Shown: positions 17,064 through 34,628 of the stretch, piece after piece
Layout: every line of letters starts with the position of its first letter
Numbering within the stretch: position 1 is the stretch's first letter
From: Firmicutes bacterium ADurb.Bin193
GTDB taxonomy: Bacteria; Bacillota; Clostridia; Monoglobales; Firm-18
Assembly: GCA_002070105.1 (NCBI GenBank)
Contig: MWCQ01000012.1
Coordinates: 6,754 to 70,753 of the forward strand
Length of the DNA stretch: 64,000 nt
Reading direction: 5' to 3'
Made by a program: the position numbers and the translations under genes
Notes under the pieces: generated by a model
The model's input: only the letters and a program-made list of their open reading frames with translations
Databases searched by the model: none
What the model was told of the DNA's origin: nothing

Positions 17064-17077
17064 AGTAATTTTCCTCC

Positions 17078-17653
17078 TTAGTTCAGAAAATCGTCATCGT
17101 TGTCAGATGCGAAATCGTTCTCTGCACTTGCTTTGCCACCAAGAGGCTCGCCAGCGCGAATGAGCTGCAGATTATTGAGCCCGCAAGCAATTCCCTTGTT
17201 GCCGTTGCTGTTGAAGGCATAGAAATTGATACTGGCGCGGCCGTAGACACCGGAGTACACCTCGGAGCGGGTGATGACGGGGTTGCGGTCAGCATCAACG
17301 ATACCGGGAGCGGTTGTAGAGTTCGCGTTAATAAAGTAGGCATTTGCGTAAGCAGGATCATCAGGGCGTTCGACGTCGCCGTCACGAAGTGGGTTTTTGA
17401 TTGCAGCCAGAGGCGGCACGGATTTGCCGTTACCCTTGAGCTTGGACTCACCTTCGCGATAGGCAGCTTCGATTGCAGCCTTCAGCTTGGCAACCGTCTT
17501 TGTGTCGGACTTTGGAATAATGAGGCTGACACTGTATTTTGGTGTGCCACCGTTGATGGACTTCGGTTCCCATACGTTGGCATATGACCAGCGGGTATCG
17601 GGACCGGTTATAACTTTCATGGGATTGTTGACTTTGTTCGTAGTATTAGACAT
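17078..17653 (-). CDS. DUF2815-type (gp2.5-like) ssDNA-binding protein
   Basis: MSNTTNK...RWSYANVWEPKS..., acidic tail DNDDDFLN, positioned next to DUF2800 and PolA. Confidence 0.65.
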   Translation of the reverse strand: MSNTTNKVNNPMKVITGPDTRWSYANVWEPKSINGGTPKYSVSLIIPKSDTKTVAKLKAAIEAAYREGESKLKGNGKSVPPLAAIKNPLRDGDVERPDDPAYANAYFINANSTTAPGIVDADRNPVITRSEVYSGVYGRASINFYAFNSNGNKGIACGLNNLQLIRAGEPLGGKASAENDFASDNDDDFLN

Positions 17654-17666
17654 ATGATTGTCCTCC

Positions 17667-18797
17667 TTAATTTTCATTAAAATCGGCTGCTGCCGTTGAC
17701 ATTGCCGGACGTTTATCACTCTCCGGCACAAGAGTGGGTTTGCCTTGCGGCTTTTCAATGTAAGGACTTAAGAGCTCATCAAAGCGGGATTTCCCGAGCA
17801 GCTTTTGCATGGCTGTGATACCGAGCACCTTACGCTCATACGGGTCGAAGCCTGCCTGCTCGACGACATCGGCAACAACCGCGTCGCTAACATATTTCCT
17901 GTTGGAACGACCCTCGACCAGCTTCCAGCCACTCCATTCCTTGCCGCTGATCGCCTGCTGCAGGGCGTATTCCTTGATGTCTGACGCCCATGAGATAAGC
18001 TCATCGACCTTTGACAAAATGTCCTCAATATCCTCATCTGTGAGGAGTGGCGGGAGCTTAAATTCATACTGCGCCAAAGCGAGATTTGATTCAGCACGGG
18101 CGCGGCAGTCGTTCTTTGCCTTACAGAAGCCGCACCACTCGCCACAGAGAAAATTGCCGTCGCCGGCGAATGCGAGTTCAGCGGTGGGTTTAAGAACTTC
18201 GTTAGCCCAGCGATACAGGTTATCCTTGGATATTTCATAGGTGCTGACGTTGTCTCTACGTGGTTGATAGATGGTCGTGCTGACGGTTTCTATGTCGTAG
18301 ATTTTGTCAAAAAGCTCCAGTGCACCGAGAGCGTAACACATAAGCTGTGGGTTTTCCTCGGCACGAACGAGCACGCCGAGTCCATGCTTGTAATCACAGA
18401 TTTTTAGGGTACCATCTGCGATTATAATGGCATCCGCTGTTCCGAAGCCTCCTTCCACCCAGCGTGAAAAATCGACGCGTTGTTCGATGAGAACCACAGG
18501 ATCGGAGCAGGCCTGTTTGGTGGCCTCGACCTGTTCGAGTACATAAGCGGCATAGCCATTGGCACATTCGTTCATTTCCTCATTGAAGTAGGTCAGGTTT
18601 TCGGTCGGGTCCTCGGCGGGCAGTCCCAGTGCCTTACGGAGTTTGTACTCGCAAAGAGCATGGGCTTCAGTGCCTTCGGCAGCGTAATCGCTACCCTTGT
18701 CCTCGAAGCTTTCGCACAATCGTGCGGATGGCGGGCAATGGAGCCAGCGGTCAGCACTTGATGCTGAGAGAATTGCATGTCCTTTAGGTGGCATCAT
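17667..18797 (-). CDS. DUF2800-type PD-(D/E)xK (Cas4-like) nuclease
   Basis: ILSASSADRWLHCPPS N-terminus, ...ICDYKHG..., C-terminal Cys cluster CGEWCGFCKAKNDC. Confidence 0.7.
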   Translation of the reverse strand: MMPPKGHAILSASSADRWLHCPPSARLCESFEDKGSDYAAEGTEAHALCEYKLRKALGLPAEDPTENLTYFNEEMNECANGYAAYVLEQVEATKQACSDPVVLIEQRVDFSRWVEGGFGTADAIIIADGTLKICDYKHGLGVLVRAEENPQLMCYALGALELFDKIYDIETVSTTIYQPRRDNVSTYEISKDNLYRWANEVLKPTAELAFAGDGNFLCGEWCGFCKAKNDCRARAESNLALAQYEFKLPPLLTDEDIEDILSKVDELISWASDIKEYALQQAISGKEWSGWKLVEGRSNRKYVSDAVVADVVEQAGFDPYERKVLGITAMQKLLGKSRFDELLSPYIEKPQGKPTLVPESDKRPAMSTAAADFNEN

Positions 18798-19095
18798 TTA
18801 GTACCTCCACTTCGGCAAGTAGCGCCTTATAGCTGGTTGGGGCAAGCTCTGAAAGTTTATCCGCACCATACTTCTGAAGCAATGAGCGAATCTCGGCGGT
18901 GTGACCTTTGCGGGATTTTTCCGCAAGCACTGCTCTTACTTCTTCCAATGTCAGCGCCGGCTCAGTTGCGGGAGATACTTCGGCCGGTTCATTAGCGCTG
19001 AATGTTTCGGCCAGCCAATTTGCTACGTCATTAATAGCCGCAGCAGCGCTGCGCAGTTCTTTAATAGACGCAGCCATTTCGCTCATTTTGCTCAT
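18784..19095 (-). CDS. Hypothetical phage protein
   Basis: ATG 19095 follows GGAAGGAGG. Confidence 0.4.
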   Translation of the reverse strand: MSKMSEMAASIKELRSAAAAINDVANWLAETFSANEPAEVSPATEPALTLEEVRAVLAEKSRKGHTAEIRSLLQKYGADKLSELAPTSYKALLAEVEVLNDAT

Positions 19096-19240
19096 CTGAC
19101 TTTCCTCCTTCCATGTGTTGACTCTGATCGGCAAGTATCTTCAGTTTTCTTGCCAGGCGTTTGGACACAACGCTGATTGCAGTAAGGACATCAATGAGCT
19201 CTCCGTCTACAGCGCGGGTCCGGGTATCGGTTTCGTACAT
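19061..19240 (-). CDS. Hypothetical small phage protein
   Basis: ATG 19240 (MYETD) follows GAGGAGG. Overlaps the next gene by about 35 nt. Confidence 0.3.
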   Translation of the reverse strand: MYETDTRTRAVDGELIDVLTAISVVSKRLARKLKILADQSQHMEGGKSDEQNERNGCVY

Positions 19241-19339
19241 TTTGTTCACCTCCTCGGAAGGAGCAGTTGTCGTTTTTGCTCTTTCCACTACCCACTGGAG
19301 GTTAGAAGGCTGTTTTGACGAAGGAAAATAAAATATTTT

Positions 19340-19380
19340 GAAAAAAATATCTCCGACCGTTTTATAGGACGGCCGGAGAT
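19340..19380 (-). terminator. Rho-independent terminator after the 19388..19900 gene
   Basis: Minus strand reads ATCTCCGGCCG-TCCTATAAAA-CGGTCGGAGAT (one mismatch) followed by ATTTTTTTC. Confidence 0.6.
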
Positions 19381-19387
19381 GTAGGGT

Positions 19388-19900
19388 TTAGAATAGGTCT
19401 GGGTATTCGCGCTGTAAAATTCCCTTTGCCTTTTTCAAGCGAGAAAGAAATGTTGTACGCGGAACGCCGATTCTATCAGCGATTTCTGAATCAGACAGAC
19501 CTTCCATACGCAGTTTTCCGATACTTCGGGCTTCTGGCATAATATCGGCGAGGCGCTGAAAGAGCATATCCAGCATGATTTGGTCGGTAACGACCTCCTC
19601 GATACTTGCACTTGTATCAGCGAGTTTGTCAAGCATGGAGAAAAGGTCTCCATCTTTGTTCTCGGTAGTATAATCAATGGAGAGCATGTCTCCAGCACGA
19701 TGAAATTCACAGTTATAGCAGTCAACATCGCAGAGCCAAAACTTATTCTTCGGGCAGGCACATCGACCATGAGATTGGCGTCGTTTGCGGAAAGTGTTGC
19801 AATAACGATTGTGATCCTTGTAGTAATCTTCGGGTACTTCCACCCAGTCACGAGTGGCCTTTAAATAGATGCGTTTACTCTTATTGTCTTTGTTTTGCAT
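19388..19900 (-). CDS. Sigma-70 region-4-like regulator with a Cys/His-rich N-terminal half
   Basis: C-terminal LRMEGLSDSEIADRIGVPRTTFLSRLKKAKGIL. N-terminal CACPKNKFWLCDVDCYNCEFH. Start taken at MQNKDNK. Confidence 0.5.
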   Translation of the reverse strand: MQNKDNKSKRIYLKATRDWVEVPEDYYKDHNRYCNTFRKRRQSHGRCACPKNKFWLCDVDCYNCEFHRAGDMLSIDYTTENKDGDLFSMLDKLADTSASIEEVVTDQIMLDMLFQRLADIMPEARSIGKLRMEGLSDSEIADRIGVPRTTFLSRLKKAKGILQREYPDLF

Positions 19901-19968
19901 AATACGGGCCTCCTTTGTCCCACAGCCGCTGATTGGTGTGGAGAAGCGGAGAGCCCGTATGGGTGCCA

Positions 19969-20038
19969 GCGGCAAAAAATGGACGCAAAAATCCCACCCG
20001 TAGCGGGAGAACTATTTCTCCGCTTCAAGTTGCGTCCA
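19969..20038 (-). terminator. Hairpin plus T6 in the leader upstream of the sigma-like gene (terminator or attenuator)
   Basis: Minus strand has outer stem TGGACGCAA / TTGCGTCCA (9 bp) enclosing inner stem GCGGAGAA / TTCTCCCGC, followed directly by TTTTTT. Confidence 0.45.
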
Positions 20039-20501: not shown

Positions 20502-20637
20502 AAAAAATAAGTTTAACTCGATTTTTTCCTTTAACCACACCATAATTATAAGGAATAGCAATGAGAAAGTATTTGCCCCTGTTTTGCCACTGTTTTGCCA
20601 GTGTTTTTCCGGGACATGTGAAGGGAGATATGGTTTG

Positions 20638-21834
20638 ATGAACGAACTGAATATGTCATCTTATATCCAGACCATGCAGCCAGGACTTATGACGCACGAC
20701 AAGCAAGAGTCTGCAGGTGTTTTCCTTCTCAGTTCGATCAATGATCAGGAATACGTCGGACTGAATGGATACAGGACGGACAACCTTAGTTCAAAGAAAA
20801 TAAGTCGTCTGGTAAGCAGAGCCGATCATGTACCGGATGGAATCAAACAGGCTTCAACGAAGCAAGTTGTAATAGATGAGACAATCAAATACTTCAAAAA
20901 TCAGGTGTGGAAGGATCTAAACCCTCATTTGATGGATGATACTATTAATGATGTGGTAAAACTGATCAGCGTTGATCCAACCATTCCAGACAGCAAGAAA
21001 AAGAGTCTCATAGAATTCCACACATCCGGTGATGATCCACGTTTCCTTGCAGAGGCCTTTTTATACGCAGTAAACAGACCAAATAAAAAGGTAGACGATG
21101 TTGTTGAATACGAGGATGCTCCGCTATTGGCGGAAGCAAATTACGAGTGTCCTCTTTGTCATAAGAAATTAGTGGATACTGTAAAAAATCAGGCGGTGAA
21201 GCGTTATAGGATTACTCAGATCTTCCCTGATGATCTTGATGATGAATTTACTGCCATGTTCTCTGCAGCGTGCCAAGCACCGAGCAGACTGGACGTGCCG
21301 GAGAACTTAATCGCATTAGATGAAGAATGCTCTGACCGTTATCTTTTGAGCCCTACGGTGGATGAATATAAAAAGCTCCGTGAGATTAAGGATTCTATCT
21401 CACGGAACTACGCTGCAAAATCCGCTGTTAATTGTGTCCAACTTGAGGATGATATTCGTACTGTTCTGGATGCCCTGAGCCAGATTAGGGATGCATCGGA
21501 GCTTGTTCAACTGGAATATGACGCTCTTCATATAGAGGAAAAATTCAAACCGGAGAATTTCATTCTTAAGAATGAGACGCAATTGCAGGTGGTTACATAC
21601 TATAGATATATCGAAAAAGTGTTCTCTGAGTCTGATGCCGACTTTGATATAATAGCTTCAGAAATCAAGGTAAGTTCTCAAAAGCTGGAGAAGGCCGGGA
21701 TGTCGCAGGCAGAGGTCATGGCTCAATTGTCTGAGTGGATCAGGAATAAGTCAGGTCTAGGTGCGGACGGGCAACTAGCCTGTAATATTGTTGTTTCGTT
21801 TTTTATACAGAATTGTGAGGTGTTCCATAAGTGA
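20638..21834 (+). CDS. ABC-three-component (ABC-3C)-type system protein, first component
   Basis: 398 aa. ATG 20638 lies 9 nt after GGGAGA. The stop overlaps the next start (GTGA). Contains YECPLCHKKL...ITQIFP...ENLIALDEEC, which resembles a degenerate HNH-like finger. The call rests mainly on context with the 74-aa and DUF2326 genes. Confidence 0.55.
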   Translation: MNELNMSSYIQTMQPGLMTHDKQESAGVFLLSSINDQEYVGLNGYRTDNLSSKKISRLVSRADHVPDGIKQASTKQVVIDETIKYFKNQVWKDLNPHLMDDTINDVVKLISVDPTIPDSKKKSLIEFHTSGDDPRFLAEAFLYAVNRPNKKVDDVVEYEDAPLLAEANYECPLCHKKLVDTVKNQAVKRYRITQIFPDDLDDEFTAMFSAACQAPSRLDVPENLIALDEECSDRYLLSPTVDEYKKLREIKDSISRNYAAKSAVNCVQLEDDIRTVLDALSQIRDASELVQLEYDALHIEEKFKPENFILKNETQLQVVTYYRYIEKVFSESDADFDIIASEIKVSSQKLEKAGMSQAEVMAQLSEWIRNKSGLGADGQLACNIVVSFFIQNCEVFHK

Positions 21835-22055
21835 AAATTCCAAGCAAGGTGACACCATACAAAGAAAGCACTATCGCAAAATTCCCTGTTGTGCTTTCCC
21901 TGTTGCAAGAAGGTGACCTTTCTCCAACGGACTTATACAGTAAGGTGAAGGATAGTAAAATTAAGCATATAGAAGAATTCGTTGAGGTTCTGGACTGCCT
22001 TTATGCAATGAGAAAAATAGAAATTCGAGAGGAGGTTCTCTATTATGTTGGTTGA
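21831..22055 (+). CDS. ABC-3C-type middle component (small wHTH-like protein)
   Basis: 74 aa, overlapping both neighbours (4 nt and 11 nt). Size and position are as in ABC-3C triads. Confidence 0.5.
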   Translation: MKIPSKVTPYKESTIAKFPVVLSLLQEGDLSPTDLYSKVKDSKIKHIEEFVEVLDCLYAMRKIEIREEVLYYVG

Positions 22056-23724
22056 AGTGCAATGTGATAAATTTATTAGTGACGGACAGATTCGGGAGCC
22101 TATTCGGTTTCATACTGGTCTCAATACTGTACTCGGTGATAATAATGGGTCAAACTCCATCGGTAAGTCTACCTTCCTAATGATACTGGATTTTATTTTT
22201 GGTGGTTCGGATTATGTAAAAAAGTGTGTAGATGTTCAGGAAAATATAAAAGAGCACACGATTAATTTCACCTTTGAGTTTGGTGGCTATCAATACCACT
22301 TCTCAAGGAATACCATCGACTACAATAAGGTTGTTAGATGTGATGAGAAGTACAATCCCTTAATTGAAGAAAAACCTTTGAGCCTTCAGGAATATGGAGA
22401 TTTTCTATGCAAAAATTATGGGCTGTCTGCAGAGGGAATCACATGGCGCGGGGCAGTAGCCAGATTCATCCGTGTCTATAAGAGAGATACGCTAGACGAG
22501 GAGCGGCCTCTCCGGTCATCAAAGGATGAGAAAGCCAGTGATGTAATCAAACGGTATATGCAACTTTTTAATAGATATCATGCTGTAGAAGCACAGATTA
22601 ATCAGGCAACTGCCGCTGAGGATGAGAAGGAGGCCTTTCGCAAATCTTCGTTGCAATATAATCATGTTCGTGCTGCAAAGACAACTAAGGAAAAAGAAGC
22701 AAATGAAACACGAATTGCTGTGCTAGAGCAGCGAGAGAAGGAAATGGCTGAAAGTAGCAATCAGGGTCTCCTTGATCTTGATAGCCTGACGGCGCGTCGT
22801 CTTTCTGAACTGATGGAGCAACTTATCAACTATCGAAGGCAGAGAGCTCGTATTCAAACACAACTCAACTCTATCCGTCGCGATATGACGGAGCAGAAAA
22901 AAGGGTTTAAAAGAACGTTCACTGATTTAGAACGATTCTTTCCAAACGAAGAATTCCGTACTCTTGAAGAGATTGAGCACTTTCACCAGAAACTAGCGAA
23001 GATTCTAGCTGAGGAGTTTAGGGAGGCAGAAAAGGATCTATCCACTACCTATGTGCTGTTGAATAATGAGATCGTAAGGCTAAAGAATGAGATCACTGAA
23101 ATTAAGAATGTCCCTAATGTGTCTCAGGCTATATTGAAGGAATTTGCACAGATAACGACCGAACTTCATAATCTCAGAGAAGCAAATAAAAATTTTGATG
23201 AACTGGAGAGCCTAAAGAAAGTAGCTGCAGATTATGCAGAGACTCGAGATGCTGTAATCCATGACCAGTTGCTTGCTATTGAAACCACCGTTAATCAGGC
23301 GATGCGCGAAATTAGTCTTAAGATACTAAAGGATGCCACACACATGCCTCCAATATTGCGACTGGAGAAATTAAACAAATATACATTTAATACTCCGAAC
23401 GATGGAGGAACTGGAGCACAGTATCGTGGACTGATTACATTTGACCTTGCGAATATGACAGCAGGTCCCATCCCGTTTGTTATACACGATTCTGTTTTAT
23501 TGAAAAATATAGAACGAAAAGTATTTGCAGAGATAATAAAAGTCTATGAGGCGCAGAAAAGTCATGGAAAACAGGTCTTTATGGCATACGATACTCTAGA
23601 TTCATATGACGAGAAAACGCGACTGCTAATTGAGTCAAATGCAGTGTTGAGACTGTCACCGAGAGGTAATGAGCTTTTCGGATGGGCTTGGAATAAGGAG
23701 AACAAAGATGAAGCAGGCAAATAA
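22045..23724 (+). CDS. DUF2326-type ABC/SMC-like ATPase with central coiled coil
   Basis: N-terminal GLNTVLGDNNGSNSIGKSTFLMILDFIFGG (Walker A), about 240 aa of heptad-rich sequence, and C-terminal PFVIHDSVLLKNI (Walker B/D-loop-like). Confidence 0.75.
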   Translation: MLVEVQCDKFISDGQIREPIRFHTGLNTVLGDNNGSNSIGKSTFLMILDFIFGGSDYVKKCVDVQENIKEHTINFTFEFGGYQYHFSRNTIDYNKVVRCDEKYNPLIEEKPLSLQEYGDFLCKNYGLSAEGITWRGAVARFIRVYKRDTLDEERPLRSSKDEKASDVIKRYMQLFNRYHAVEAQINQATAAEDEKEAFRKSSLQYNHVRAAKTTKEKEANETRIAVLEQREKEMAESSNQGLLDLDSLTARRLSELMEQLINYRRQRARIQTQLNSIRRDMTEQKKGFKRTFTDLERFFPNEEFRTLEEIEHFHQKLAKILAEEFREAEKDLSTTYVLLNNEIVRLKNEITEIKNVPNVSQAILKEFAQITTELHNLREANKNFDELESLKKVAADYAETRDAVIHDQLLAIETTVNQAMREISLKILKDATHMPPILRLEKLNKYTFNTPNDGGTGAQYRGLITFDLANMTAGPIPFVIHDSVLLKNIERKVFAEIIKVYEAQKSHGKQVFMAYDTLDSYDEKTRLLIESNAVLRLSPRGNELFGWAWNKENKDEAGK

Positions 23725-23974
23725 AAATAAAAAAGAGCTAAGAACACAGTTTAGTTACAATCGTTTATGGAAGCTGCTGATTGACAGAAACATTAAAAAG
23801 CAGGAGCTTCAAAAAATGAGCGATGTTAGCGCTGCTTCCATTGCGAAAATGGGAAGGTGCGAAAATGTTACAACAGACGTTCTTCTTAGAATCTGCGAAG
23901 CTCTTGATTGCAGAGTAGAAGAAATAATGGAGCGCGTTCCGAACAAAGAAACTAATACCGAGAAAGTTGAGTGA
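23708..23974 (+). CDS. XRE-family HTH transcriptional regulator
   Basis: KKQELQKMSDVSAASIAKMGRCENVTTDVLLRICEALDCRVEEIME. The start overlaps the ATPase stop by 17 nt. Confidence 0.75.
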   Translation: MKQANKNKKELRTQFSYNRLWKLLIDRNIKKQELQKMSDVSAASIAKMGRCENVTTDVLLRICEALDCRVEEIMERVPNKETNTEKVE

Positions 23975-24090: not shown

Positions 24091-27000
24091 ATGCTAAACA
24101 GAGAAATTCCGTTTAGACCTAAACTAGAGGGGGACTTTAGAATTAGGTTTTACAATGCAGTTTCTGTTATAAATGAAGAAACCTCGCCATTGGAGATAGA
24201 AAAAATCTCCAATAACGAGATCATGTGGGTAGAGAATGTTTGTACATATAATCTGGGGCAAAGAAAAAAATACAGGGCTGTTTGGATGTTATTTCGTGAT
24301 TTAACCAGAGCATCATGGAAAGCTTGCTATCGAGAGGGAGTTCTATATATGAGCCTGCCAAGCTTAAATGGTGCTGATATGCATGACGCTTCATCACCGG
24401 AAATAAAGAGACTTTTACGCAGTTGGATGAGCGAGAGCAGACACGAGCGATTGGTATCTTATACAGAATTCATCCAACGTATGGAGCGTAAAAATATCAA
24501 CAAGCATAGTATTGATGAATTAATAGCTGATGGAGAAGAACTAGCTTCTCGTTTGGAGAAGGCTCGTGATGGAGATATCAAGCTTACAGAAGCAGTGAAA
24601 CCTTATCTGCAGTTGGTTGTTGAGAACGAAAGAGATGAATTTACCGGAATAAAGACTTCAGAAATATGGAGATATTTTCGACTAACCTGGTCTACACCGG
24701 CTGAAACGACACCCGGACGTACTATGCAATATTTGATCCGAGATGCCGCCCATCCTATGCACGCTGTTATGGGCATAGCGTCACTCGAAAACTGTGCTGT
24801 ACAAATTACATGCAGGGATGATTTTATCGGTTGGAATCAGAAGGCTTTCATAGATAGGATCACATTACTTGGATCTGATGAGGCTAAAAAGGAGTTTCAG
24901 CAACTTCTACGATATCTTGAAAGTGGAATTAGTGGAATCGATTATTCTTCCTTATGTACCGAGGCAACGGTTAAGAATCCAAGCGAGGAGGATATTCAGC
25001 AGTTATTTGATTATGCAAACAGCGCTGAGCAGAGAAGACAAGAATTGTTAAAGGAAGCGTTGGAGGTTGGAATCGAGGAAGAAGAGAAAAGTGAATTAGG
25101 AAGTATATCAAAGGACACGGAGGAAGCTCTTTATAGAAGAAAACGAGCCGAACAACTTGCGCGCTTGCTTATGGCAAAGAAAGCGTTGGTGGAGGTATTT
25201 AATTCCGATGGATTTGATGAAATTTGGGTTGGTTTCTGTAAAAGTGAATACGGAAATTCAGTAATAAGAACTGCGCTTGTGGCACAGAAAACTCAGCATA
25301 TAGGCTCTAGCCTTATGGAGTTAAATGTTTGTGGTGCAATACCGCCATACAATGAAATACTAGGCGGGAAACTTGTTGCACTGTTGGCAACATCTCCTCA
25401 GGTAATACATGATTATAAGGAGCGATATTCGAATAAAGCTAGCATGATAGCTAGTAGAATTAAAGGTGAGGATGTGTTTAGGCCTGCCGACTTGGTTTAT
25501 GTAGGAACCACCTCCCTTTACTATGTTGGATCAAGTCAGTATAACCGATTGAGAATACCAGGGAAACTTTTCGATTCGGATTTCGATGTTGTATGGAAAA
25601 AACTTGGTATGACGATAGGTTTCGGTACGATGCATATAAGCAAAGCTACAACTCTTAGTTTAACTGAAGCAACTAGTGATGGTTACAACCGGATAAATCA
25701 TGTTTTTGGAGAAGGCGCAAGCCCGAAGATGCGCTTGCTCACAATGTCTATTAGAGAATTATTAGAATCTACTAATGAGGATTCCAAGGACTTTTCCAAG
25801 CATGCCATGTCACGTATTGTTTATGGTGCTTGCCTGGCCAGCAATACTTTAGATTATTTGATGGGAAAAGCAGAAGCACCAAAATATTACACAGACGTTC
25901 AAAAATATCAGGATGGAACAAAAAAGATTATTGATTATTGGACATCCAGATGGCTTGGAAGCAGACTTAACTATGACCCTATTTATCAGCGAATTCGTGA
26001 TTTTGATAAAGAAGGCTTTCTTGTAGGGAATCAAGTAAAAAAAGACAAAGAATGGGTTTTTAAGAAACTTAAGGAGGTATCACACATGCCGGTTAACGAT
26101 GATAAAAAAGTAGGCTTGCAATTCATTCGTGATTTTTATCGCGGTACAAGTGCGTACGCCGATCACGTGGATGAGGAACTTCTTTCCTACATACATCTGA
26201 AGACCAAACTGGATGATGCGGTTATAGCCGCAGCAAAAGCCGGCAAAGACATCGTGCTTACAGGAAATCCGGGCGATGGTAAGACGCATATCATCAGACT
26301 GCTGAAAAACCAGTTGGAGAATCTGTCTACTCCTGCAATTGTTGAATTGGATGCAAGTACTCTGTCAAACGAAGAAATATTCCAAAGATGGAATCGCGCA
26401 CAGGAGGAAAAAGCACCGTTTGTTATTGCGATAAACGCTGCTGTTTTGTACGCAGTGTATAATGCTTATCCAAATTTCACTCCGATTAAGGAAGCATATT
26501 CTCAGATGGTGCATTCAGTAGTTTTTCACGATGAAGTTCAGAAGACAGATTCTATTGTTGTGTTTGATCTCAGTAAACGAGAGGTTCTTACAAGTGAAAT
26601 TCTGGAACAAGCAATTTTTAAAATGACAGCCGAGGATCATTATACAGAATGTAAAAAGTGCCCCCTGTACGATGCATGTGTGGTACAAAAGAATAGAGTG
26701 CGGCTCAGGAATCCTCTATTTCAAGAGCGGTTGAGTATAATACTCCAACGAGTTTCTTTACAGGGATACCATGCAACATTACGTGAACTTCAGAGTTTCA
26801 TAGCTTATTTGATATTCGGAAATCGGAGTTGCAAGCAATTAAACCATACAGCCGGGAATAATCAATATGACATTGTGAATTTGATCTACTTTGGTAAAGG
26901 AACCCTTTTTACTGCTATAAATAATGCAATAGACCCTATCAATATCTCACATCCAGTATGGGATGAAAAGATATTATTGAATGACATCGATCCATCCTCC

Positions 27001-27681
27001 TGGGTTGATGGATACGAAGTTCCAGCAGAGGCTATAGCATATGATAATGATGATTTGTTCCGGCTGAGAAAAAGGCAGTTTTTCTTCTTTAATCTATATG
27101 GAGATGAACTTTTAAGGATTCTTGACGATGATGCATCGCGTTTTCAAGATTTCTTGAGGCAGGACAGCGGAAAGATAATTAAAGATCTTATTTCAAAGCT
27201 CAATGGTTTTTTTGGAGCAATCAACGCGTCCAATACAAAGTTGCAGATTTGGTCGGGACATCGTTACAATAATGAACCACGAAAAGTGCTTATTTCTGCA
27301 GGTTGTATAAAGAAAAGTGAATTCAGCATCGGTAGGCCCTCACTTTTAAGCAGTATGCAGACTGGAATTGATATGACCTCCAATTACATAAGACTTGAAA
27401 AAAAAGAGGCACCAAATATCTTTTTAAAGGTTGATTTTAAAATGTATCTCCTTTTGAATGAAGCGGAAAGAGGTGTGCCAGTACTTTTTATGGAATCCAA
27501 TTTAGTAAAGAAAGTATGGCGTTTTATTGAGCAGCTTCAATCATATAAGGATATTGACGATGAAGACACAGTTAAACTTGGACTGATGGATGTTCAGAAC
27601 AAACGCATCATTATGGTGGATGTTGATAGAGAGGATAATAAGTATTCTGCTATTGACAGTGAAAGAACAAGGGAGGTGTAG
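24091..27681 (+). CDS. DruA-like DUF4338 domain fused to a C-terminal P-loop NTPase (1196 aa)
   Basis: Residues about 190-520: RLTWSTPAETTPGRTMQYLIRD...IASLENCAVQITCRDDFIGWN...CGAIPPYNEILGGKLVALLATSP...LVYVGTTSLYYVGSSQYNRL...WKKLGMTIGFG. This parallels the DUF4338 conserved blocks as I remember them. Walker A is GNPGDGKT at 26263-26286 (K731). Confidence 0.65.
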   Translation: MLNREIPFRPKLEGDFRIRFYNAVSVINEETSPLEIEKISNNEIMWVENVCTYNLGQRKKYRAVWMLFRDLTRASWKACYREGVLYMSLPSLNGADMHDASSPEIKRLLRSWMSESRHERLVSYTEFIQRMERKNINKHSIDELIADGEELASRLEKARDGDIKLTEAVKPYLQLVVENERDEFTGIKTSEIWRYFRLTWSTPAETTPGRTMQYLIRDAAHPMHAVMGIASLENCAVQITCRDDFIGWNQKAFIDRITLLGSDEAKKEFQQLLRYLESGISGIDYSSLCTEATVKNPSEEDIQQLFDYANSAEQRRQELLKEALEVGIEEEEKSELGSISKDTEEALYRRKRAEQLARLLMAKKALVEVFNSDGFDEIWVGFCKSEYGNSVIRTALVAQKTQHIGSSLMELNVCGAIPPYNEILGGKLVALLATSPQVIHDYKERYSNKASMIASRIKGEDVFRPADLVYVGTTSLYYVGSSQYNRLRIPGKLFDSDFDVVWKKLGMTIGFGTMHISKATTLSLTEATSDGYNRINHVFGEGASPKMRLLTMSIRELLESTNEDSKDFSKHAMSRIVYGACLASNTLDYLMGKAEAPKYYTDVQKYQDGTKKIIDYWTSRWLGSRLNYDPIYQRIRDFDKEGFLVGNQVKKDKEWVFKKLKEVSHMPVNDDKKVGLQFIRDFYRGTSAYADHVDEELLSYIHLKTKLDDAVIAAAKAGKDIVLTGNPGDGKTHIIRLLKNQLENLSTPAIVELDASTLSNEEIFQRWNRAQEEKAPFVIAINAAVLYAVYNAYPNFTPIKEAYSQMVHSVVFHDEVQKTDSIVVFDLSKREVLTSEILEQAIFKMTAEDHYTECKKCPLYDACVVQKNRVRLRNPLFQERLSIILQRVSLQGYHATLRELQSFIAYLIFGNRSCKQLNHTAGNNQYDIVNLIYFGKGTLFTAINNAIDPINISHPVWDEKILLNDIDPSSWVDGYEVPAEAIAYDNDDLFRLRKRQFFFFNLYGDELLRILDDDASRFQDFLRQDSGKIIKDLISKLNGFFGAINASNTKLQIWSGHRYNNEPRKVLISAGCIKKSEFSIGRPSLLSSMQTGIDMTSNYIRLEKKEAPNIFLKVDFKMYLLLNEAERGVPVLFMESNLVKKVWRFIEQLQSYKDIDDEDTVKLGLMDVQNKRIIMVDVDREDNKYSAIDSERTREV

Positions 27682-27685: not shown

Positions 27686-29170
27686 ATGGAACAGATTTAT
27701 CTTCGAGATGCACGTAAGGCTGTAGATAAGAATTATGTTGGGTTTACTCCTAATGGAAGTTCAATTAAGCCTGTTCATATAGCGGGTGGTTCACTTCGCT
27801 GTATCTTCGGATATTATAACCGAACCAAAAACATCAAGCGGATGGCATTGGTTTCTGATTCCAAAGGTAATATCCCTGCAGGCAACGAAGCAGATATAAT
27901 TTATTCTCAGTTAGCGAAAGATGAAAAGATTGAGGACAGCATTTCTGAGAATTCCATTGAGTCCATGAGGAATGTCATGCAGAGGTTGCTGTCTGTTGAT
28001 AAAGGTGTTTATGTTGTAAAAGGGCTTAAAGATGGAATGATTTCCTATTCTGCTGGGTCAAAGTATTTCCTCACAAGTAGAGCTATGTATGAGGATGCTG
28101 GTGAGTTTATGGGAAGCCTTATAAGAGCATACTGTCCAGATCTTGCAAACTATATCAGAGATCTCTTGGAATCAGGGAATGATCCGATTACATTGCTATT
28201 CGGCCCTGTTCTAGAGGCAGATATGGAAGTGTTCTCTGATCAAAATCAGCATGAAGATTTGCCTGCATTTCAGGAGTTGAATAAAAGTACTAAATGGTTT
28301 ATAAATAGCATAAGAGATGGCGGAGCGTGCTTATTGGACAATTTCCGGCATCATCCTAACCCATTGACGCAGTTAAGACAGTTCAACTTTTTCTGTATTA
28401 TTAATTTGATTCGATACATGACCCTGCTGGAGGCTTTATATTGTGGCGAAAACATTAGACCAATATTGTTGGATTTTAGTGGGAAAATCCCTAGCTTTAG
28501 TAGTGTGGCAAGAATGTCCGAGATGTCTTACACGCAAATGTATAAATCAATTAACCGCTTCTATGCATGGGGATATGCAAAATGGCTTGATGAGCAGGGA
28601 TACAGCAAAGAAGAACTGTTAAATTCTGAAACGCCTGCATATGAAAAAGGAAAAACTGTCTCAAAGGCTAGCAAGGACGAATTGGATGCGCTGTGGACTC
28701 TTGCAAAGGAACGAGCCAGTGAAGTAGATGGAGAAAGCATGTACCTTGAGTTTGGGGAGACTATGTACGATATGCTTGCGCTAGAAGCATCGTCCCACCC
28801 GGTAACATATATTAGGGCTCTTGGGACATCTGCTGGTGTTTTGTATCCCCCAGATCAACTACACCCTAATAAGCGATTTGTTATTTCTCAAGATATTCTC
28901 GAAATGCTTTTAAGAAGTTGTGTAAGCTCTGGTGAAATAATAAGCGGCATGGAAATTAGACAACGGCTGTGGGATAGATTTGGGATTATTATTGGAGGAA
29001 GCCAGTTTGAAATGCAGATGCTCCAATCAAGTGGAATGATTATGCAAATTGATGAGGATGCACTAGAAGAAAATTTCTCCTTATTTGCCGCAACTCTTGA
29101 GTCAATGGACTTTGCAGAGGTTATGGCAGACGGTATTCTACAGATTAGAATGGGAGGTGCTGAAAAATGA
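27686..29170 (+). CDS. 494-aa protein of unknown function, translationally coupled to both neighbours
   Basis: ATG 27686 lies 4 nt after the upstream stop and after GGGAGG. Its stop overlaps the next start (ATGA). No motif recognised. Confidence 0.6.
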   Translation: MEQIYLRDARKAVDKNYVGFTPNGSSIKPVHIAGGSLRCIFGYYNRTKNIKRMALVSDSKGNIPAGNEADIIYSQLAKDEKIEDSISENSIESMRNVMQRLLSVDKGVYVVKGLKDGMISYSAGSKYFLTSRAMYEDAGEFMGSLIRAYCPDLANYIRDLLESGNDPITLLFGPVLEADMEVFSDQNQHEDLPAFQELNKSTKWFINSIRDGGACLLDNFRHHPNPLTQLRQFNFFCIINLIRYMTLLEALYCGENIRPILLDFSGKIPSFSSVARMSEMSYTQMYKSINRFYAWGYAKWLDEQGYSKEELLNSETPAYEKGKTVSKASKDELDALWTLAKERASEVDGESMYLEFGETMYDMLALEASSHPVTYIRALGTSAGVLYPPDQLHPNKRFVISQDILEMLLRSCVSSGEIISGMEIRQRLWDRFGIIIGGSQFEMQMLQSSGMIMQIDEDALEENFSLFAATLESMDFAEVMADGILQIRMGGAEK

Positions 29171-32100
29171 TGGACAAGCAAGCATTAGTTGCCGAACTTC
29201 TACGGAAGCATCTTGGTTGTGTAAAAACAGGTATCATTATCAAAGGAATTGAGGGTATTAATCCCGAAAGCATTGTCAGTCAGTTGGTTGATACCAATGC
29301 TCAATTGTATACTGCCATAATTGGTTATGGCAAGGTTACCAAGAGCCATGAAGCCAATTATGAAATTACCGATTTGATTGAGAAAGCAGTCTTGTGGAGA
29401 AGTATGCCTGAATGTGCTAGACGCATTCTCGTATTTATAAAGAATGATACGGACAAGCTTCATTCCTTGGCTGAATTTGACGTTATTTCCACGAGGGATG
29501 TATCGAGATTCCTTTTAGAACAGCAATTGAAGAATGATAATAATACACCAACACATAACTTTTGGACTGCACTTAAAGATACCTCTGATTACTATACGTT
29601 CGATGCGCTATACGAATTTGTTTCGGCAGTGTCGAGAAGTGACAATTCCGCAGAAGCAATCCCAGAAAACATGTGGCGGATAAATCTGTTATCTGATTCC
29701 AAAATTCTTGGCACAAAAAGTGATCCCAAGGAGAGACTCGCTAAGAACAGAGACCTAATTTTTTCAATAGGGCAACTACGTGAGGATTCTAGAAAGAAAC
29801 TGAGTCGGTCTTTGGCGCGGTCAAAAGTGAGCGATAAAGAAAGACTCCAAAAGGCATATCATAGCCTGCAAAGTCTTTATAAATACGGCAAGCGTGAAAC
29901 ACTAAGGGATCTTGATATGGAGACAGTCCAAGAATTGTTTTCTGCATCTCAAGAATCAGATAATAAAAGAAAGAAAGCATTACCTCCTAAACCCGAGGAC
30001 CCTTCAAATATTGAGGAAACACTACCTGAGAGCACACCAATCAAGCCAAAGGAGTTAGACGTTTTAATCTCCGATGCAGTGGTATTTGGCGGTGATGAGG
30101 AATTAGAAAATATACAGGATTTACTGAAGGCATTAATAAAGCATTACGATCCTGAAACTGAAGAAAATGATGACGACATTCCTCCGATAGGCGGAATTTT
30201 TGGCGATAGAAATATTGTGTTAGAAAACCATCAAACGGATCTCAGAAAGCTAGTTGGTAAGTTTTGCAATTTGTCCGCTTGGGGCGGTCTCATGGAGACT
30301 GATGAAAGTGTTCTCAAGGATGCTATTTCTGCCGATATCACTAATGCTAAATTTTTCAATCCGGAAAGTGTAAATTCGATAATATCTTTTTCAGGCGGAA
30401 TCGACGGAAGTCAGCCTTTGTTTGATTTCATCGTTCAATTCGATGCTCAATTTGATGCAAAGGGATTGGATAACGCGGAGAGATTCACTGCGATAATATC
30501 TAATTTAAAGGAACAGAGAGCAAAGCTTTATGATTCGATTGATATGATTATGTATCATCCAGTTCTATTATTTGGAGCCTCTGAAGAAAAGAGACAGGTT
30601 CTTGTGGATTATATTCAAGCGTGGGAACGTCTTTATCATGCGTTCTGCGTTAATGAGCCCATCATGAGACAAATCAGCGCTGGAGGAACAAGTTTTATTG
30701 CTAGAGCGATTTTGCTGCTAGATGTTTTATATGTTAAGACTCCGAAGGAATGGAAAGGACTGCTCCTTCCGTTGCATCCAATTTACCTATGGCGCTTTTA
30801 TGAGGTCTTCCGTACCTTGCCCAATAAGAAGTCTACGCTTAGCGACGAAGATAAAGATGCGTTATCTGCAGTTTTATCGCAGCTTCCGCAGGTACTGAGT
30901 TTTATCATAGCAAACAGCATTGTGACTGAATCATCGGAAGATCGAATTCTCCCTTGCTCTGGAAGCATAGAGATGTTGCCTACCTTTGAAAATAAAACTA
31001 ATCGCTATTTAGGCAATGATGGCACAGAATCCATAGAAGAAATACTTACTAGGTGGGTAGGTTTTGCTCCTTATACACGAAACGAAATCAGAATTTGCTC
31101 TGTAGATGCGCCAGATTTAATTGGAATTATTCGTCAAGTTAAGTCCTTTATGGATAAAAATTCCTGCAAGCGCGTAGTATATGATGTTTATCTTACAAGA
31201 AACCAAAATGGGAATACTGAACTGTCAAAACTAGATTATGCTGGAAAGGATTACGAAATAGGCGAATATATAAAAGAAGACCGAATTTTCATAGGTATTA
31301 AAAATGTTCGTTCAGTGAATGATGTAAAATCCGCCTTGGACTTTAGGCCTGTTCATGTGGCGTTCTATTTTGATCAGTCCTCATACGCAATCGAATTTGG
31401 CCCAAACAGCCATAACCTTTATATCAATCCGCTAGTTATAACATATGATTATGACTTTGACGAGATTCAGCATAAAGGCAGCATCTTCCCTTCATCAGAA
31501 ATGGACTCCGGTCTTATTGGTGACTACCATAAGCTAATGAGATCAGCGGATATTATAACCAACAACATGAATCCGAGGACAATCTATAACGGAAATGCGG
31601 ATATGACATCTGTGGTCTCGACGATTGAGGACGGCCAGACGCAGTGGCTTGTGGTTGCAGATAGAGACACAAACAATTATCAGCCAGAAAAGGCTATTCC
31701 GATTGGTGAGATGCAATATGACAAGAGGATGGTAAATGCTTGGGCGTCAGATGAATCAAGAATCATCTCACAGTATTTAAATCTTCTTCGCGGCTATAAT
31801 TTATATCCCAAGGCTGAAACCCTTATTGATATTCTTCGACAGTTTGGCCATATTGCTTCTAATGGGCTGATTAGTATTCCAAAATTTGGGGCAGACGCCC
31901 AGGCGATCGATAACAAGAGAAAAGGTTTAATTGGGACTTTATTTGCAGCTTCTTGGTATATGAAAAAGCATCCAGAGGCTCTTGTTGCATCCTTGGATGA
32001 TGATAAGGCAAGACTTTGGCTGCAAAACAGAAAGTATGGAAATGAACGGGCCGATCTCGTAGGCTTGTACTATGATGATCAGAGCAATACACTCCATATT

Positions 32101-33915
32101 CAACCTATTGAGGTGAAAACGAGAGATGAATCTCCGGATGCCACCATAACTAAGGATGAAGTTGGATCAAAGGTATTTAATATTACTGGCCATGCTGCAG
32201 GTCAGATTGCTTCAGTGATAGAGATCTTGAGAGAAATCTTTACTACCGATGAAAATGCAGCGGATATGTTTACGTCGGCACGAAGAGAGGTCTTAAAATA
32301 CCAAATTGTATCAGAATGCTTCAGAAATGTACACAATGCAGATTGGCAAAAGCGATGGTACGATATTCTGAAAAGAGCGTTCGCGAATGGACCTAGAAAG
32401 AATATAACAATTAATGTATCAGGAATACTAATGCATATAAAGCTTAATGAGGCGTCCGGCGGCGAGCATATTGTTTGCTATAATCCCGAATTCGATGATT
32501 GTCGAATTGATTATTGGAAACTTACAGCCAGAGAAATTCAGCGAGATGTGCTGGGAGATGGTTCCCTTATTAAAGAAATGTGGACACCAGATTTTGATAC
32601 AGCGGAAGACAATGATGTGGTAGTTAATGATTCAGTTGATGCAATAATTGATAAAGATGACGCTGTTGATGATATATATGAAGAAGGAGATATTACAAGA
32701 GATATTCATCCTCCGGAAAGTATTCCATCAAGCAATTTGGCGGTAGTTACCGAACCGCGTGAGAAGAACGGTGCGCCAGTTATTTCGGGCACTCCTGTTC
32801 TGGAGACTGAAAATGGCGTTAGCAAAGAAGAGATTGAACAGTTGGTTAAGGATTTTAAGAGATCCTGTGGTGATTATCATGTTTCCTTGCGTGAATGCGA
32901 TGCAGAAAATACAGTTGTTGGGCCAAGCGTTATACGTTTAAAATTCCGTTTGGGTCGAGGACAAGCATTGCAGGGGCTTTCCAGCCATCTAGAGGATATT
33001 GGAAGAGAGATGAAGCGTACCGGCGTGATTATCCAACAGGTGCCTAATTCTGATGAATTACTTCTAGATGTACCACGGCTTCAACGCGAAAAGGTTTTAT
33101 TTAGGGATGTCATATCTTCTTTGCCTAGGGTAACGTCTCCTGAGCAACTGTATTTCCCCCTTGGAAGAACACCTAATGGTGTAGATTTAATTGAGGATCT
33201 TGGCCAGATGCCACATATGCTGGTTGGTGGTAGCACTGGATCTGGAAAATCTGTATTCCTCTTTACAATGCTTGCTGCAATGTTGATGACTCATCCGCGA
33301 AAGGAAGATCTTCAGTTGATTTTATCCTCGTCAAAGCTGGAGGATTTCATACATTTTGAAGGATTACCCCATCTTTATTCGGGGAGTGTTATTTCTGATG
33401 CTATCGAAGCAACGAAAGTGATCAAGGAGGTTATTTTCGAAGAGTCTGAACGCAGAGGGAAACTACTTGCAGAGGCTAGAGTCGCAAACATTATCGAGTA
33501 TAACAAGATAGCAGAGGAGAAACTCGCTCCAATCGTAGTAGTGATTGATGAGTTTGCTGATTTGGCAGATCAATTAGAAAATAAAAAAGAACAAAACGCT
33601 TTCTATAAACCTGTTCAACGCATAGCACAGGCTGGACGTAGTAGAGGGATACATCTTGTTATCTGCACACAACGACCTGAAGCAAAACTTGTACCTTCAA
33701 CTACAAAAGCACAATTAAACGGCCGTGTTGCTTTGCGTGTTAATGATGGCATTTCATCTCGCATGATTATCGAGACACCGGATGCTCAGTACCTTCAGAA
33801 GCACGGAGATATGATTTACAAGAATGGTGATGTGGTTGAACGTGCCCAAGGTTATTTGATTGAAATCGAGGAACTAGATAAAATCGTAAGCTCAGTAATT
33901 AATGGTACATTCTAA
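29167..33915 (+). CDS. 1582-aa protein: unknown N-terminal region, PD-(D/E)xK-like nuclease motif, acidic linker, C-terminal FtsK/SpoIIIE alpha-beta ATPase motor
   Basis: ERADLVGLYYDDQSNTLHIQPIEVKTR (D963, E982, K984). VGPSVIRLKFRLGRGQALQGL...VIIQQVPN (FtsK alpha-like). MLVGGSTGSGKSVFL (Walker A, K1361). IVVVIDEFADL (Walker B). GIHLVICTQRP. NGRVALRVNDGISSRMI. Confidence 0.8.
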   Translation: MMDKQALVAELLRKHLGCVKTGIIIKGIEGINPESIVSQLVDTNAQLYTAIIGYGKVTKSHEANYEITDLIEKAVLWRSMPECARRILVFIKNDTDKLHSLAEFDVISTRDVSRFLLEQQLKNDNNTPTHNFWTALKDTSDYYTFDALYEFVSAVSRSDNSAEAIPENMWRINLLSDSKILGTKSDPKERLAKNRDLIFSIGQLREDSRKKLSRSLARSKVSDKERLQKAYHSLQSLYKYGKRETLRDLDMETVQELFSASQESDNKRKKALPPKPEDPSNIEETLPESTPIKPKELDVLISDAVVFGGDEELENIQDLLKALIKHYDPETEENDDDIPPIGGIFGDRNIVLENHQTDLRKLVGKFCNLSAWGGLMETDESVLKDAISADITNAKFFNPESVNSIISFSGGIDGSQPLFDFIVQFDAQFDAKGLDNAERFTAIISNLKEQRAKLYDSIDMIMYHPVLLFGASEEKRQVLVDYIQAWERLYHAFCVNEPIMRQISAGGTSFIARAILLLDVLYVKTPKEWKGLLLPLHPIYLWRFYEVFRTLPNKKSTLSDEDKDALSAVLSQLPQVLSFIIANSIVTESSEDRILPCSGSIEMLPTFENKTNRYLGNDGTESIEEILTRWVGFAPYTRNEIRICSVDAPDLIGIIRQVKSFMDKNSCKRVVYDVYLTRNQNGNTELSKLDYAGKDYEIGEYIKEDRIFIGIKNVRSVNDVKSALDFRPVHVAFYFDQSSYAIEFGPNSHNLYINPLVITYDYDFDEIQHKGSIFPSSEMDSGLIGDYHKLMRSADIITNNMNPRTIYNGNADMTSVVSTIEDGQTQWLVVADRDTNNYQPEKAIPIGEMQYDKRMVNAWASDESRIISQYLNLLRGYNLYPKAETLIDILRQFGHIASNGLISIPKFGADAQAIDNKRKGLIGTLFAASWYMKKHPEALVASLDDDKARLWLQNRKYGNERADLVGLYYDDQSNTLHIQPIEVKTRDESPDATITKDEVGSKVFNITGHAAGQIASVIEILREIFTTDENAADMFTSARREVLKYQIVSECFRNVHNADWQKRWYDILKRAFANGPRKNITINVSGILMHIKLNEASGGEHIVCYNPEFDDCRIDYWKLTAREIQRDVLGDGSLIKEMWTPDFDTAEDNDVVVNDSVDAIIDKDDAVDDIYEEGDITRDIHPPESIPSSNLAVVTEPREKNGAPVISGTPVLETENGVSKEEIEQLVKDFKRSCGDYHVSLRECDAENTVVGPSVIRLKFRLGRGQALQGLSSHLEDIGREMKRTGVIIQQVPNSDELLLDVPRLQREKVLFRDVISSLPRVTSPEQLYFPLGRTPNGVDLIEDLGQMPHMLVGGSTGSGKSVFLFTMLAAMLMTHPRKEDLQLILSSSKLEDFIHFEGLPHLYSGSVISDAIEATKVIKEVIFEESERRGKLLAEARVANIIEYNKIAEEKLAPIVVVIDEFADLADQLENKKEQNAFYKPVQRIAQAGRSRGIHLVICTQRPEAKLVPSTTKAQLNGRVALRVNDGISSRMIIETPDAQYLQKHGDMIYKNGDVVERAQGYLIEIEELDKIVSSVINGTF

Positions 33916-33932: not shown

Positions 33933-34628
33933 ATGCAGGCGACTTCTATGTATGGAGACTTAATTGTTGGCACTTTTATAAAAGAAGAAAAGAATCGATT
34001 TATTTGCCGTGTTAGGGTCTCTGGAATAGAAACCGTCTGCTATATTCCTTCATCCTGTCGACTCAGCAACTTTATTGACCTTGAAGGAAGACAGGTCTTA
34101 CTAAAACCAAACGCATCCAGAAAGACACGCACGGAATACTCTGTTTTTGCAGTTAAATACAAACGAGGATTTATTCCTGTTAATCTTTCTTTAGCTAATC
34201 GAGTTGTTGAAGAACAAATTAAAAACCGCAGATTTTCATTCTTAGGAAACCGAAAAAATGTAATTCGAGAGGCTATGATAGATGGATATAAAGCGGATTT
34301 GTATATCAGTGACACACAGACAATAATTGAAATTAAAAGCATTCTTTCATTTGAAAAAGAAACTGTATTTCCTACTGTATATTCAGAACGTGCACTAAAT
34401 CAGTTAATAAAAATTAAAGAACTATTACTACAGGGATATACGGTACATTATATGTTGATTTCATTAAACCCTGTTGTTAAGCAAATCACATTAAATCAAA
34501 ATATGAGTGATTTTTATGAGCATTTTCTTGAGTGTATAGCTTTGGGGATGCAGTGCTGCGGGTATAGCATTTATTTACAAAGTGGCATACCAACCACGCA
34601 TTCAAAAACTAACGTATATTGGTGCTGA
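33933..34628 (+). CDS. sfsA: SfsA-like nuclease (N-terminal OB-like region plus PD-(D/E)xK core)
   Basis: GTFIKEEKNRFICRVRVSGIETVCYIPSSCRL..., GYKADLYISDTQTIIEIKS (D...E-I-K), and size (231 aa) match the SfsA family. AAGGAG lies 7 nt upstream of the ATG. Confidence 0.7.
   Translation: MQATSMYGDLIVGTFIKEEKNRFICRVRVSGIETVCYIPSSCRLSNFIDLEGRQVLLKPNASRKTRTEYSVFAVKYKRGFIPVNLSLANRVVEEQIKNRRFSFLGNRKNVIREAMIDGYKADLYISDTQTIIEIKSILSFEKETVFPTVYSERALNQLIKIKELLLQGYTVHYMLISLNPVVKQITLNQNMSDFYEHFLECIALGMQCCGYSIYLQSGIPTTHSKTNVYWC

Follow-up and report, generated by a model that had tools for sequence, protein, structure and literature searches.

A long-form DruA fused to an SspF/DndF-type core in an operon of the SspFGH/DndFGH class

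SspFGH from Vibrio anguillarum FF-93 acts with an sspBCD/iscS partner (PMC8092258), and MADS (mad1-8) uses a methylase and further genes, with MAD6-8 as a mandatory core that is joined to a different control module (bioRxiv 10.1101/2023.03.30.534895). Nickase and translocase activities are reported for the DndFGH complex (PMC11662687). In Druantia I, DruA canonically comes first in a DruA-B-C-D-E operon, as on P. putida pKF715A. Rakesh, Aravind and Krishnan 2024 (PMC10853773) record, as one of the domains fused to the N-terminus of DndF, a GNAT domain that Pfam annotates as DUF4338. Here we describe a 64,000-nucleotide stretch of contig MWCQ01000012.1 from Firmicutes bacterium ADurb.Bin193 (the window), in which a DruA-SspF fusion gene (24091..27681, +; 1196 amino acids (aa), ATG start) opens an operon with G- and H-type partners. 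By the features tested, the locus belongs to the SspFGH/DndFGH class, minus the usual phosphorothioate partner; it carries a genuine DruA yet is not a Druantia system.

Residues 1-650 of the fusion protein are a complete long-form DruA, and residues 650-1196 are an SspF/DndF-type nucleotide-binding core. A ribosome-binding-like AGAGAGAGGGG stands 10 nt 5' of the ATG, and this metagenome-assembled genome has a database entry for the identical protein, annotated as hypothetical. We rejected an assembly or gene-calling artefact as the origin of the fusion because its best 120 homologues (72-100% identity, from many independent assemblies) are all full-length, most of them exactly 1196 aa. That the fusion is natural, as an earlier note on this DNA had proposed, is borne out by more than 1500 homologues (an exhaustive HMMER search with aa 1-660 gave 1507 representatives of clusters at 50% identity, of which 454 fall below 1e-30) and by a neighbour-joining tree in which all fused forms make up one monophyletic clade. 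Among the best 150 HMMER matches, all 34 proteins longer than 1100 aa and about ten shorter ones carry an SspF-like half, and about 80 are stand-alone proteins of 600-799 aa. A tblastn search of the fusion against 50,697 phage records gave no match, while PDB sequence searches with the protein and with profiles of both halves and of G gave generic P-loop matches only, with E of at least 3e-3. Searches equivalent to those suggested in the earlier note matched DUF4338 in the N-terminal half and found a P-loop core in the C-terminal half.

The match to Pfam PF14236 (DruA, formerly DUF4338) reaches 114 bits against a cut-off of 27 (E 9.6e-33), and the PADLOC DruA model PDLC00001 aligns aa 54-637 with model positions 56-650 of 675 (E 8.6e-116); PADLOC models come with no curated cut-off. 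Four blocks that the earlier note had singled out as DUF4338-like, GRTMQYLIRD (209-218), CRDDFIGWN (241-249), LGGKLVALLATSP (424-436) and LVYVGTTSLYYVGSSQYNRL (468-487), are present and fall on invariant columns of family alignments. The core blocks do lie in the region of residues ~190-520 first assigned to the domain, but the DruA part is the whole ~650-aa module, since the PADLOC match extends so far beyond that region. An alignment by hhalign of the long-DruA profile with the canonical Druantia I DruA of P. putida pKF715A (probability 99.5%, E 2e-22) covers aa ~101-628 and omits aa ~250-405. The long form therefore adds an N-terminal extension (aa 1-100; 24091..24390, +) and a helical insert of ~155 aa (aa ~250-405; 24838..25305, +) that splits the DruA/DUF4338 core (aa ~101-650; 24391..26040, +); the canonical 409-aa protein lacks the first ~100 aa of the long form and also the insert, which only long-form DruA has. 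The homologous cores share the motifs PYLQ, RD..IGW, GAIPPYN.LLGGKL, TTS..SS.YNR and G.G...LR, whereas the partners are DruB-E for the canonical protein and F-G-H for the one in the window.

Among 36 sequences, mostly ~30% (29-35%) identical, 72 columns are invariant and mainly polar or aromatic; they are rich in Arg, Lys, Trp and Tyr, while Cys, His, Asp, Tyr, Ser and Thr also occur among them, grouped in core strands. The AlphaFold2 (AF2) model of the DruA half has a predicted local distance difference test score (pLDDT) of 85.3 and a predicted template-modelling score (pTM) of 0.84. Its first 100 residues form three helices and a beta-hairpin (H14-24, H33-50, H55-73, E77-81, E84-88), in which D70 and W76 are invariant, and on this predicted secondary structure the extension looks winged-helix-like. 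The insert contributes long helices at 262-281, 299-326, 341-370 and 375-403, and the modelled core elements (171-175, 189-200, 211-218, 226-233, then, after the insert, 408-416, 420-432, 470-474 and 500-507) follow a GNAT-compatible order. In a comparison of the DruA model (window 24091-26070) with BFVD, all significant matches are uncharacterised proteins of giant viruses: one from Faunusvirus (A0A3G4ZXG3, 469 aa, E 1.7e-9) and one from Yasminevirus (A0A5K0UAJ3, 1260 aa, E 3.7e-7), the latter near the DruA-F fusion in length.

Five PADLOC SspF models match the C-terminal half (26038..27678, +), the best at 3.7e-20 over aa 699-934, and the match to PADLOC DndF is weak (1.6e-4). The Walker A motif that had been noticed at its start is intact: it lies in the stretch IVLTGNPGDGKTHII (aa 721-735), with the motif proper, GNPGDGKT, at aa 725-732 (26263..26286, +). 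In an alignment of 25 relatives, fused and stand-alone, G725, G728, D729, G730 and K731 are invariant, N726, P727 and T732 are at least 90% conserved, and an invariant Asp (D754) closes the strand after Walker A. The stretch SIVVFDLS (821-828), previously put forward as a possible Walker B, was rejected; it is the next conserved strand (D826), and the Walker B-equivalent strand is PFVIAINAA (aa 776-784; 26416..26442, +), whose PFVIAIN (776-782) ends in Asn782. The F-profile alignment pairs FVIAIN with the hhhhDE Walker B of the AAA+ protein Vps4/SKD1, and in the 25 relatives the strand reads hhIAIN, with A780 invariant and N782 nearly so, Asn replacing Asp; the following position is Ala783 in the subclade of the window and Glu in many relatives. 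The Asn-for-Asp exchange is a described DndF trait (PMC10853773, section 20). As both acidic positions of Walker B are lost (N782-A783), the window F probably binds nucleotide with weak or no hydrolysis of nucleoside triphosphates.

The AF2 model of this half (pLDDT 84.0, pTM 0.81) has a short helical N-extension, a four-strand P-loop core, a lid of 13 helices (186-391 in C-terminal numbering, ~205 residues) and a C-terminal alpha+beta domain of strands and helices (401-542). It thus matches the SspF/DndF family, with its enlarged helical lid (~200 aa, 12-13 helices) and alpha+beta domain; the traits seen here are those given for DndF by Rakesh, Aravind and Krishnan (PMC10853773, section 20). 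Between the lid helices, a Cys cluster that is near-invariant in the alignment of relatives (C854-x2-C857-x5-C863; 26650..26679, +) is a probable Zn-binding insert, and some DndF proteins carry a comparable Zn-chelating insert (PMC10853773). The Foldseek neighbours of the C-terminal half are all AAA+ proteins (CbbQ, TnsC), at probabilities of 0.92-0.93 and E no better than 6e-3, and PDB searches returned no solved structure related to it by sequence. A homologue search with the F profile gave mostly fragments and no named SspF, and served alignment depth only.

The G gene (27686..29170, +; 494 aa from ATG, with an alternative GTG start at 27683) follows the F stop codon after a 4-nt gap, and GGGAGGTG (GGGAGG box) lies 7 nt 5' of its ATG. 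Window G itself is sub-threshold, with only a weak NCBIfam MAD7 match (9e-4), and its assignment to SspG is made at family level: 17 of 24 aligned G homologues match PADLOC SspG (best 9e-13), and 2 match mad7. The H gene (29167..33915, +; 1582 aa) begins in an ATGA that it shares with the stop codon of G, and its product matches PADLOC SspH over aa 910-1570 (2.4e-65), Pfam FtsK_SpoIIIE (3.5e-30) and the PDB FtsK structure 2ius (2.5e-40). It combines a PD-(D/E)xK nuclease motif (D963-L964 ... E982-V983-K984; 32053..32118, +) with an FtsK/HerA-type translocase domain (aa ~1314-1570; 33106..33876, +), and so is the translocase-nuclease partner that had been surmised for the fusion. All five nuclease-motif residues, as well as the motor residues G1355, G1358, D1461, R1491 and Q1502, each reach at least 95% conservation across 56 full-length homologues of H. 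In DndFGH, too, H joins a restriction-endonuclease domain to a HerA/FtsK motor that has a sensor-1 Gln and an Arg finger. The SspG, SspH, FtsK and D...ExK matches together point to the pairing of a putative multi-winged-helix-turn-helix G (at family level) with a nuclease/HerA-FtsK H.

With SspFGH the locus has the F-G-H order and the F Walker A in common, and its G family and the C-terminal, FtsK-like part of its H match the corresponding Ssp models. Unlike SspFGH, it has no sspBCD/iscS partner, its F carries the 650-aa DruA module and an SfsA gene is appended; its similarity to SspF is moderate, and the N-terminal 900 aa of its H are unmatched by the SspH model. The resemblance to MADS consists of partial matches, of G homologues to mad7 and of the FtsK part of H to mad8 (2.6e-19), and MADS is without DruA. 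Across the 64-kb window, the open reading frames (ORFs) scanned include no DruB, DruC, DruD or DruE, in keeping with the earlier note's placement of the gene outside any Druantia context. The window also holds no gene of a phosphorothioate module (sspABCD/dndABCDE) and no methylase that belongs to the DruA-F system.

A scan that took a single genome for each species detected relatives in 512 genomes, and we analysed the best 80 loci with ±10 kb each. Of these, 60 were informative, with enough flanking DNA; 58 carry F-G-H, and the other 2 are DruBCDE contexts. In all 58, F is either part of the same protein as the long DruA or encoded by a separate gene immediately after it, which establishes a fixed DruA-F partnership. 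H is present in 58 of them, G in 56 and SfsA in 38 of 51. This tabulation of DUF4338 fusions with their neighbours, which had been suggested as a check, separates into 37 fused loci with room (G in 36, H in 37, SfsA in 26/34) and 21 split loci with a DruA of ~660 aa followed by an F of ~515 aa (G in 20, H in 21, SfsA in 12/17), so that G/H linkage holds in both forms. No other neighbour family is shared by more than 8 of the 80 loci, nor did a crude scan for motifs detect a DNA methylase near them. The hosts belong to Clostridia, Bacilli, Negativicutes, Chloroflexota, Planctomycetota, Kiritimatiellia, Acidobacteriota, Fusobacterium and Treponema. Long DruA is also plasmid-borne in Hymenobacter, Rhodobacterales and haloarchaea, with neighbours examined in Hymenobacter and in one Roseivivax copy. 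The Hymenobacter canadensis plasmid copy (11130-14288) is a 1052-aa DruA-F fusion with G-like and FtsK-domain partner genes, which PGAP names 'Druantia anti-phage system protein DruA'.

Within the fused clade, locus L047 has the split arrangement, and this may be a frameshift because its two ORFs overlap by 83 nt. The long DruA also occurs in Druantia I. In Cohnella sp. 56 (L078, 1-11740), a long DruA of 664 aa is the last gene after PADLOC DruB-DruC-DruD-DruE (DruE1 E = 0), in contrast to the canonical DruA-first order, and Aneurinibacillus tyrosinisolvens shows a DruB-E-like pattern, recognised by ORF sizes alone, together with a long DruA. In the tree, the Cohnella and Aneurinibacillus proteins nest among the F-G-H-associated DruAs and not with short DruA. 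A third context is found on a plasmid of Roseivivax sp. THAF40 (956-7182), where a long DruA follows two MzaB-like ATPases.

To compare the components we used median identity and bits per residue between the window and 14 split-clade loci. DruA, at 35.8% and 0.54 bits, is more conserved than F (25.1%, 0.24 bits), G (22.8%, 0.14 bits) and H (24.1%, 0.21 bits), and SfsA is the most conserved component of all (47.6%, 0.94 bits). The position of DruA as the best-conserved core part agrees better with an enzyme whose substrate stays constant than with a variable sensor; its slower evolution relative to F, G and H argues for the former and against a fast-evolving phage sensor.

The architecture is already known, since the DUF4338-DndF fusion is given in PMC10853773. 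That study treats the domain as one of several variable DndF add-ons, whereas here it is strictly linked. The split form, the strict DruA-F-G-H linkage in split and fused form, the recurrence of SfsA and of a helix-turn-helix (HTH) gene, the ranking of components by conservation and the long DruA in Druantia I appear neither in its text and one supplement nor in the literature found mentioning DUF4338.

We favour, at a probability of roughly 50%, the explanation that the gene encodes the leading subunit of a defence machine with four functions, which is of the DndFGH/SspFGH class and operates with no phosphorothioate module. The identity of the system and the DruA-F partnership are the parts of this explanation in which we place high confidence, and the specific role given to DruA as a co-effector is tentative. 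By analogy with the DndFGH complex, G and H would bind DNA, translocate along it and cut it, and F would be a nucleotide-binding switch. DruA would be an enzyme on an invariant substrate, as its modelled acyltransferase-like beta-alpha order and its ~70 invariant residues suggest; docked on F, its activity would be gated through that subunit. It could thus be a second, F-triggered output, a co-effector that modifies a conserved host or nucleic-acid target, and not the phage recogniser. We favour the co-effector role because HEPN, NERD or kinase domains, which have been read as co-effectors, occupy this N-terminal slot in further members of the DndF family (PMC10853773), and because the DruA module is portable between systems.

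Several points weigh against this explanation, and the first concern the proposed enzyme. A Foldseek search of the PDB, queried with the whole 660-aa DruA model rather than the isolated core, gave nothing better than E 1.7, with the acetyltransferases HAT1, NAT10, NuA4/Esa1 and HBO1 among the weak matches only. The structure prediction suggested by the earlier note thus yielded a GNAT-compatible order and a winged-helix-like N-terminus with no significant PDB match. No Pfam GNAT family matched DruA even at E up to 10, and Pfam searches to E 10 with canonical DruA, a DruA core from which the insert had been removed, the N-terminal 170 aa and residues 1-978 of H added no further family. The acetyl-CoA motif Q/R-x-x-G-x-G/A is not evident after strand 4, where P419-Y-N-E-I-L-G425-G426-K427 has a GG pair at non-canonical spacing. 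Some GNAT-fold enzymes are without this motif, and its absence is compatible with the fold. The published GNAT assignment of DUF4338 (PMC10853773) could not be confirmed statistically here.

Further points concern the biology. Backup effectors are usually variable, but DruA is obligate in the clade and its best-conserved core part, which fits self-marking or licensing too. All experimentally studied F/G/H-type systems known to us (Dnd, Ssp, MADS) are tied to DNA modification. SspFGH alone is toxic and restricts unmodified DNA (PMC8092258), so a modification-free branch would need other self-protection, which the co-effector role does not supply. The inspected ±10 kb per locus leaves room for distant modification genes, and the neighbour-joining tree has no support values.

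One alternative, which we consider unlikely, is a non-catalytic DruA. DruA would then be an adaptor, or a DNA-binding or loading module that places F-G-H on DNA or detects a phage component, much as the earlier note had suggested with its sensor or DNA-recognition role. The modelled winged-helix-like N-terminal domain with the long helical arm, the many basic invariant residues and the lack of a significant enzyme-fold match in PDB sequence and Foldseek searches are all consistent with such a module. Its difficulty is the pattern of conservation: ~70 invariant columns at 29-35% identity, with the polar ones in core strands, are typical of an active site, and DruA (35.8% identity against 22.8-25.1% for F, G and H) evolves more slowly than its partners, whereas direct phage-protein sensors usually evolve fast. 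Within DndF, fast evolution of a sensor part has been noted for the alpha+beta domain by Rakesh et al. (PMC10853773). We therefore do not favour the sensor or DNA-recognition role.

The main rival, although we rate it as slightly less probable, is that DruA is a self-marking enzyme, acylating DNA or a DNA-bound mark so that G and H spare the host chromosome. It would take the place that SspABCD, DndABCDE and the MADS methylase have in their systems, and DruM in Druantia II. This would account for the lack of a conserved phosphorothioate or methylase gene near the 80 loci and of any belonging to the system in the window, and it fits an obligate, slow-evolving DruA with many invariant Arg, Lys, Trp and Tyr residues and a model-based winged-helix-like N-terminus. 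SspFGH alone damages unmodified host DNA (PMC8092258), and mad5 is deletable only jointly with mad2 or mad3 (bioRxiv 10.1101/2023.03.30.534895). The same long DruA stands in true Druantia I operons, and relatives of the DruE helicase act in the modification-based systems DISARM and Dpd according to a recent preprint (bioRxiv 10.1101/2025.09.15.676423). On the other side, the GNAT fold itself is unconfirmed by Foldseek and Pfam, and we know of no GNAT-type enzyme that modifies DNA. Many DndFGH systems act alone without modification, according to Rakesh et al. (PMC10853773), and Druantia III works without it according to 2026 preprints. Slightly less probable again is a wider proposal, under which DruA would act as an acyltransferase on nucleic acid and put a self-mark not described before on DNA. 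In place of phosphorothioation or methylation, this mark would license two unrelated motor-nucleases, the SspH-type FtsK nuclease and the Druantia I DruE helicase-nuclease. Finally, we reject as highly improbable the reading of the locus as a variant Druantia system, for which strong Pfam and PADLOC DruA matches and the PGAP name of the fused Hymenobacter plasmid homologue could be cited, since the system-defining DruE helicase (YprA-type) and also DruB-D are absent from the window and from 58/60 informative loci and true Druantia I operons are readily recognised where present (L078, DruE1 E = 0; L086).

Two smaller genes accompany the system. SfsA (33933..34628, +; Pfam SfsA and SfsA_N, NCBIfam sfsA 7.5e-18), with an OB fold and a PD-(D/E)xK nuclease, is a frequent fifth component and starts 17 nt after H behind its own ribosome-binding site, GAAGGAG. 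It is found upstream of DruA in 4 loci and is seemingly fused to the DruA C-terminus in a short contig (L076); the literature covered holds no record of SfsA in any defence system. A small XRE/HTH_26 gene (23708..23974, +; Pfam HTH_26 7e-18) precedes the fusion, and a homologue stands directly upstream of DruA in 21/46 fused loci; it probably encodes a transcriptional regulator and moves together with the system.

The operon lies in a low-GC defence island at 20-40 kb that adjoins a prophage replication module. GC content falls from 0.49 to 0.40 at 20 kb and is about 0.31-0.34 at 34-40 kb. The prophage module (window 1-20000) encodes a family A DNA polymerase, a D5-type primase, an SNF2 helicase, a DUF2800 nuclease and an Enc34-type SSB, along with C5 and N6/N4 DNA methylases and an S-adenosylmethionine synthetase (3619-8264), and has 73% nucleotide identity to Oscillospiraceae phage NatCom_21982 over 85% of 9-19 kb. 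A complete ABC-3C system lies directly upstream of the operon (20584-23724), with a CTD11 effector (20584-21834), a 74-aa ORF resembling the middle component (21831-22055) and a DUF2326 ABC ATPase (22045-23724). We rejected it as part of the DruA system and regard it as a neighbour, because it is upstream in just 7/36 fused loci. Downstream, at 34582-36164, a 403-aa ORF that matches no family and has a hydrophobic C-terminal tail is followed by a YunG-family protein (1.4e-34), and the two may be another small defence pair of the island. A type III-A retron-like cluster (36615-39892) contains a PRTase-CE gene (36615-37541), a 121-aa ORF, an St85-family reverse transcriptase (38291-39307; NCBIfam 1.6e-69) and a 191-aa ORF; Rfam gave no match over 19-41.5 kb, and no msr/msd RNA was found in the 413-nt gap 5' of the reverse transcriptase. 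A truncated serine-recombinase C-terminus (DUF4368) lies at 40093-40671 on the minus strand.

In the literature searched, a one-line GNAT prediction is all that has been published on DruA function. The fusion and its split counterparts are direct evidence of partnership, and in this sense the earlier note was right that the fusion is informative: DruA is physically linked to, and works on, an SspF/DndF-type nucleotide-binding subunit. The name 'Druantia DruA' is an annotation trap, misleading where it is given though no Druantia system is present. Overall, the locus is a sound, testable lead on DruA function and a little-described variant rather than a surprise. It belongs to a compact, phosphorothioate-independent system of four or five genes in about 500 species genomes, in which the function of DruA is genetically testable, with Muricomes intestini DSM 29489, Anaerotruncus colihominis DSM 17241, Clostridium leptum DSM 753 and Paenibacillus spp. 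as cultured carriers. One and the same long DruA serves in two machines that differ in mechanism, DruBCDE and F-G-H; as a fixed partner of two different anti-phage motors, it now links Druantia I with the Dnd/Ssp/MADS restriction family, which had been treated separately before.

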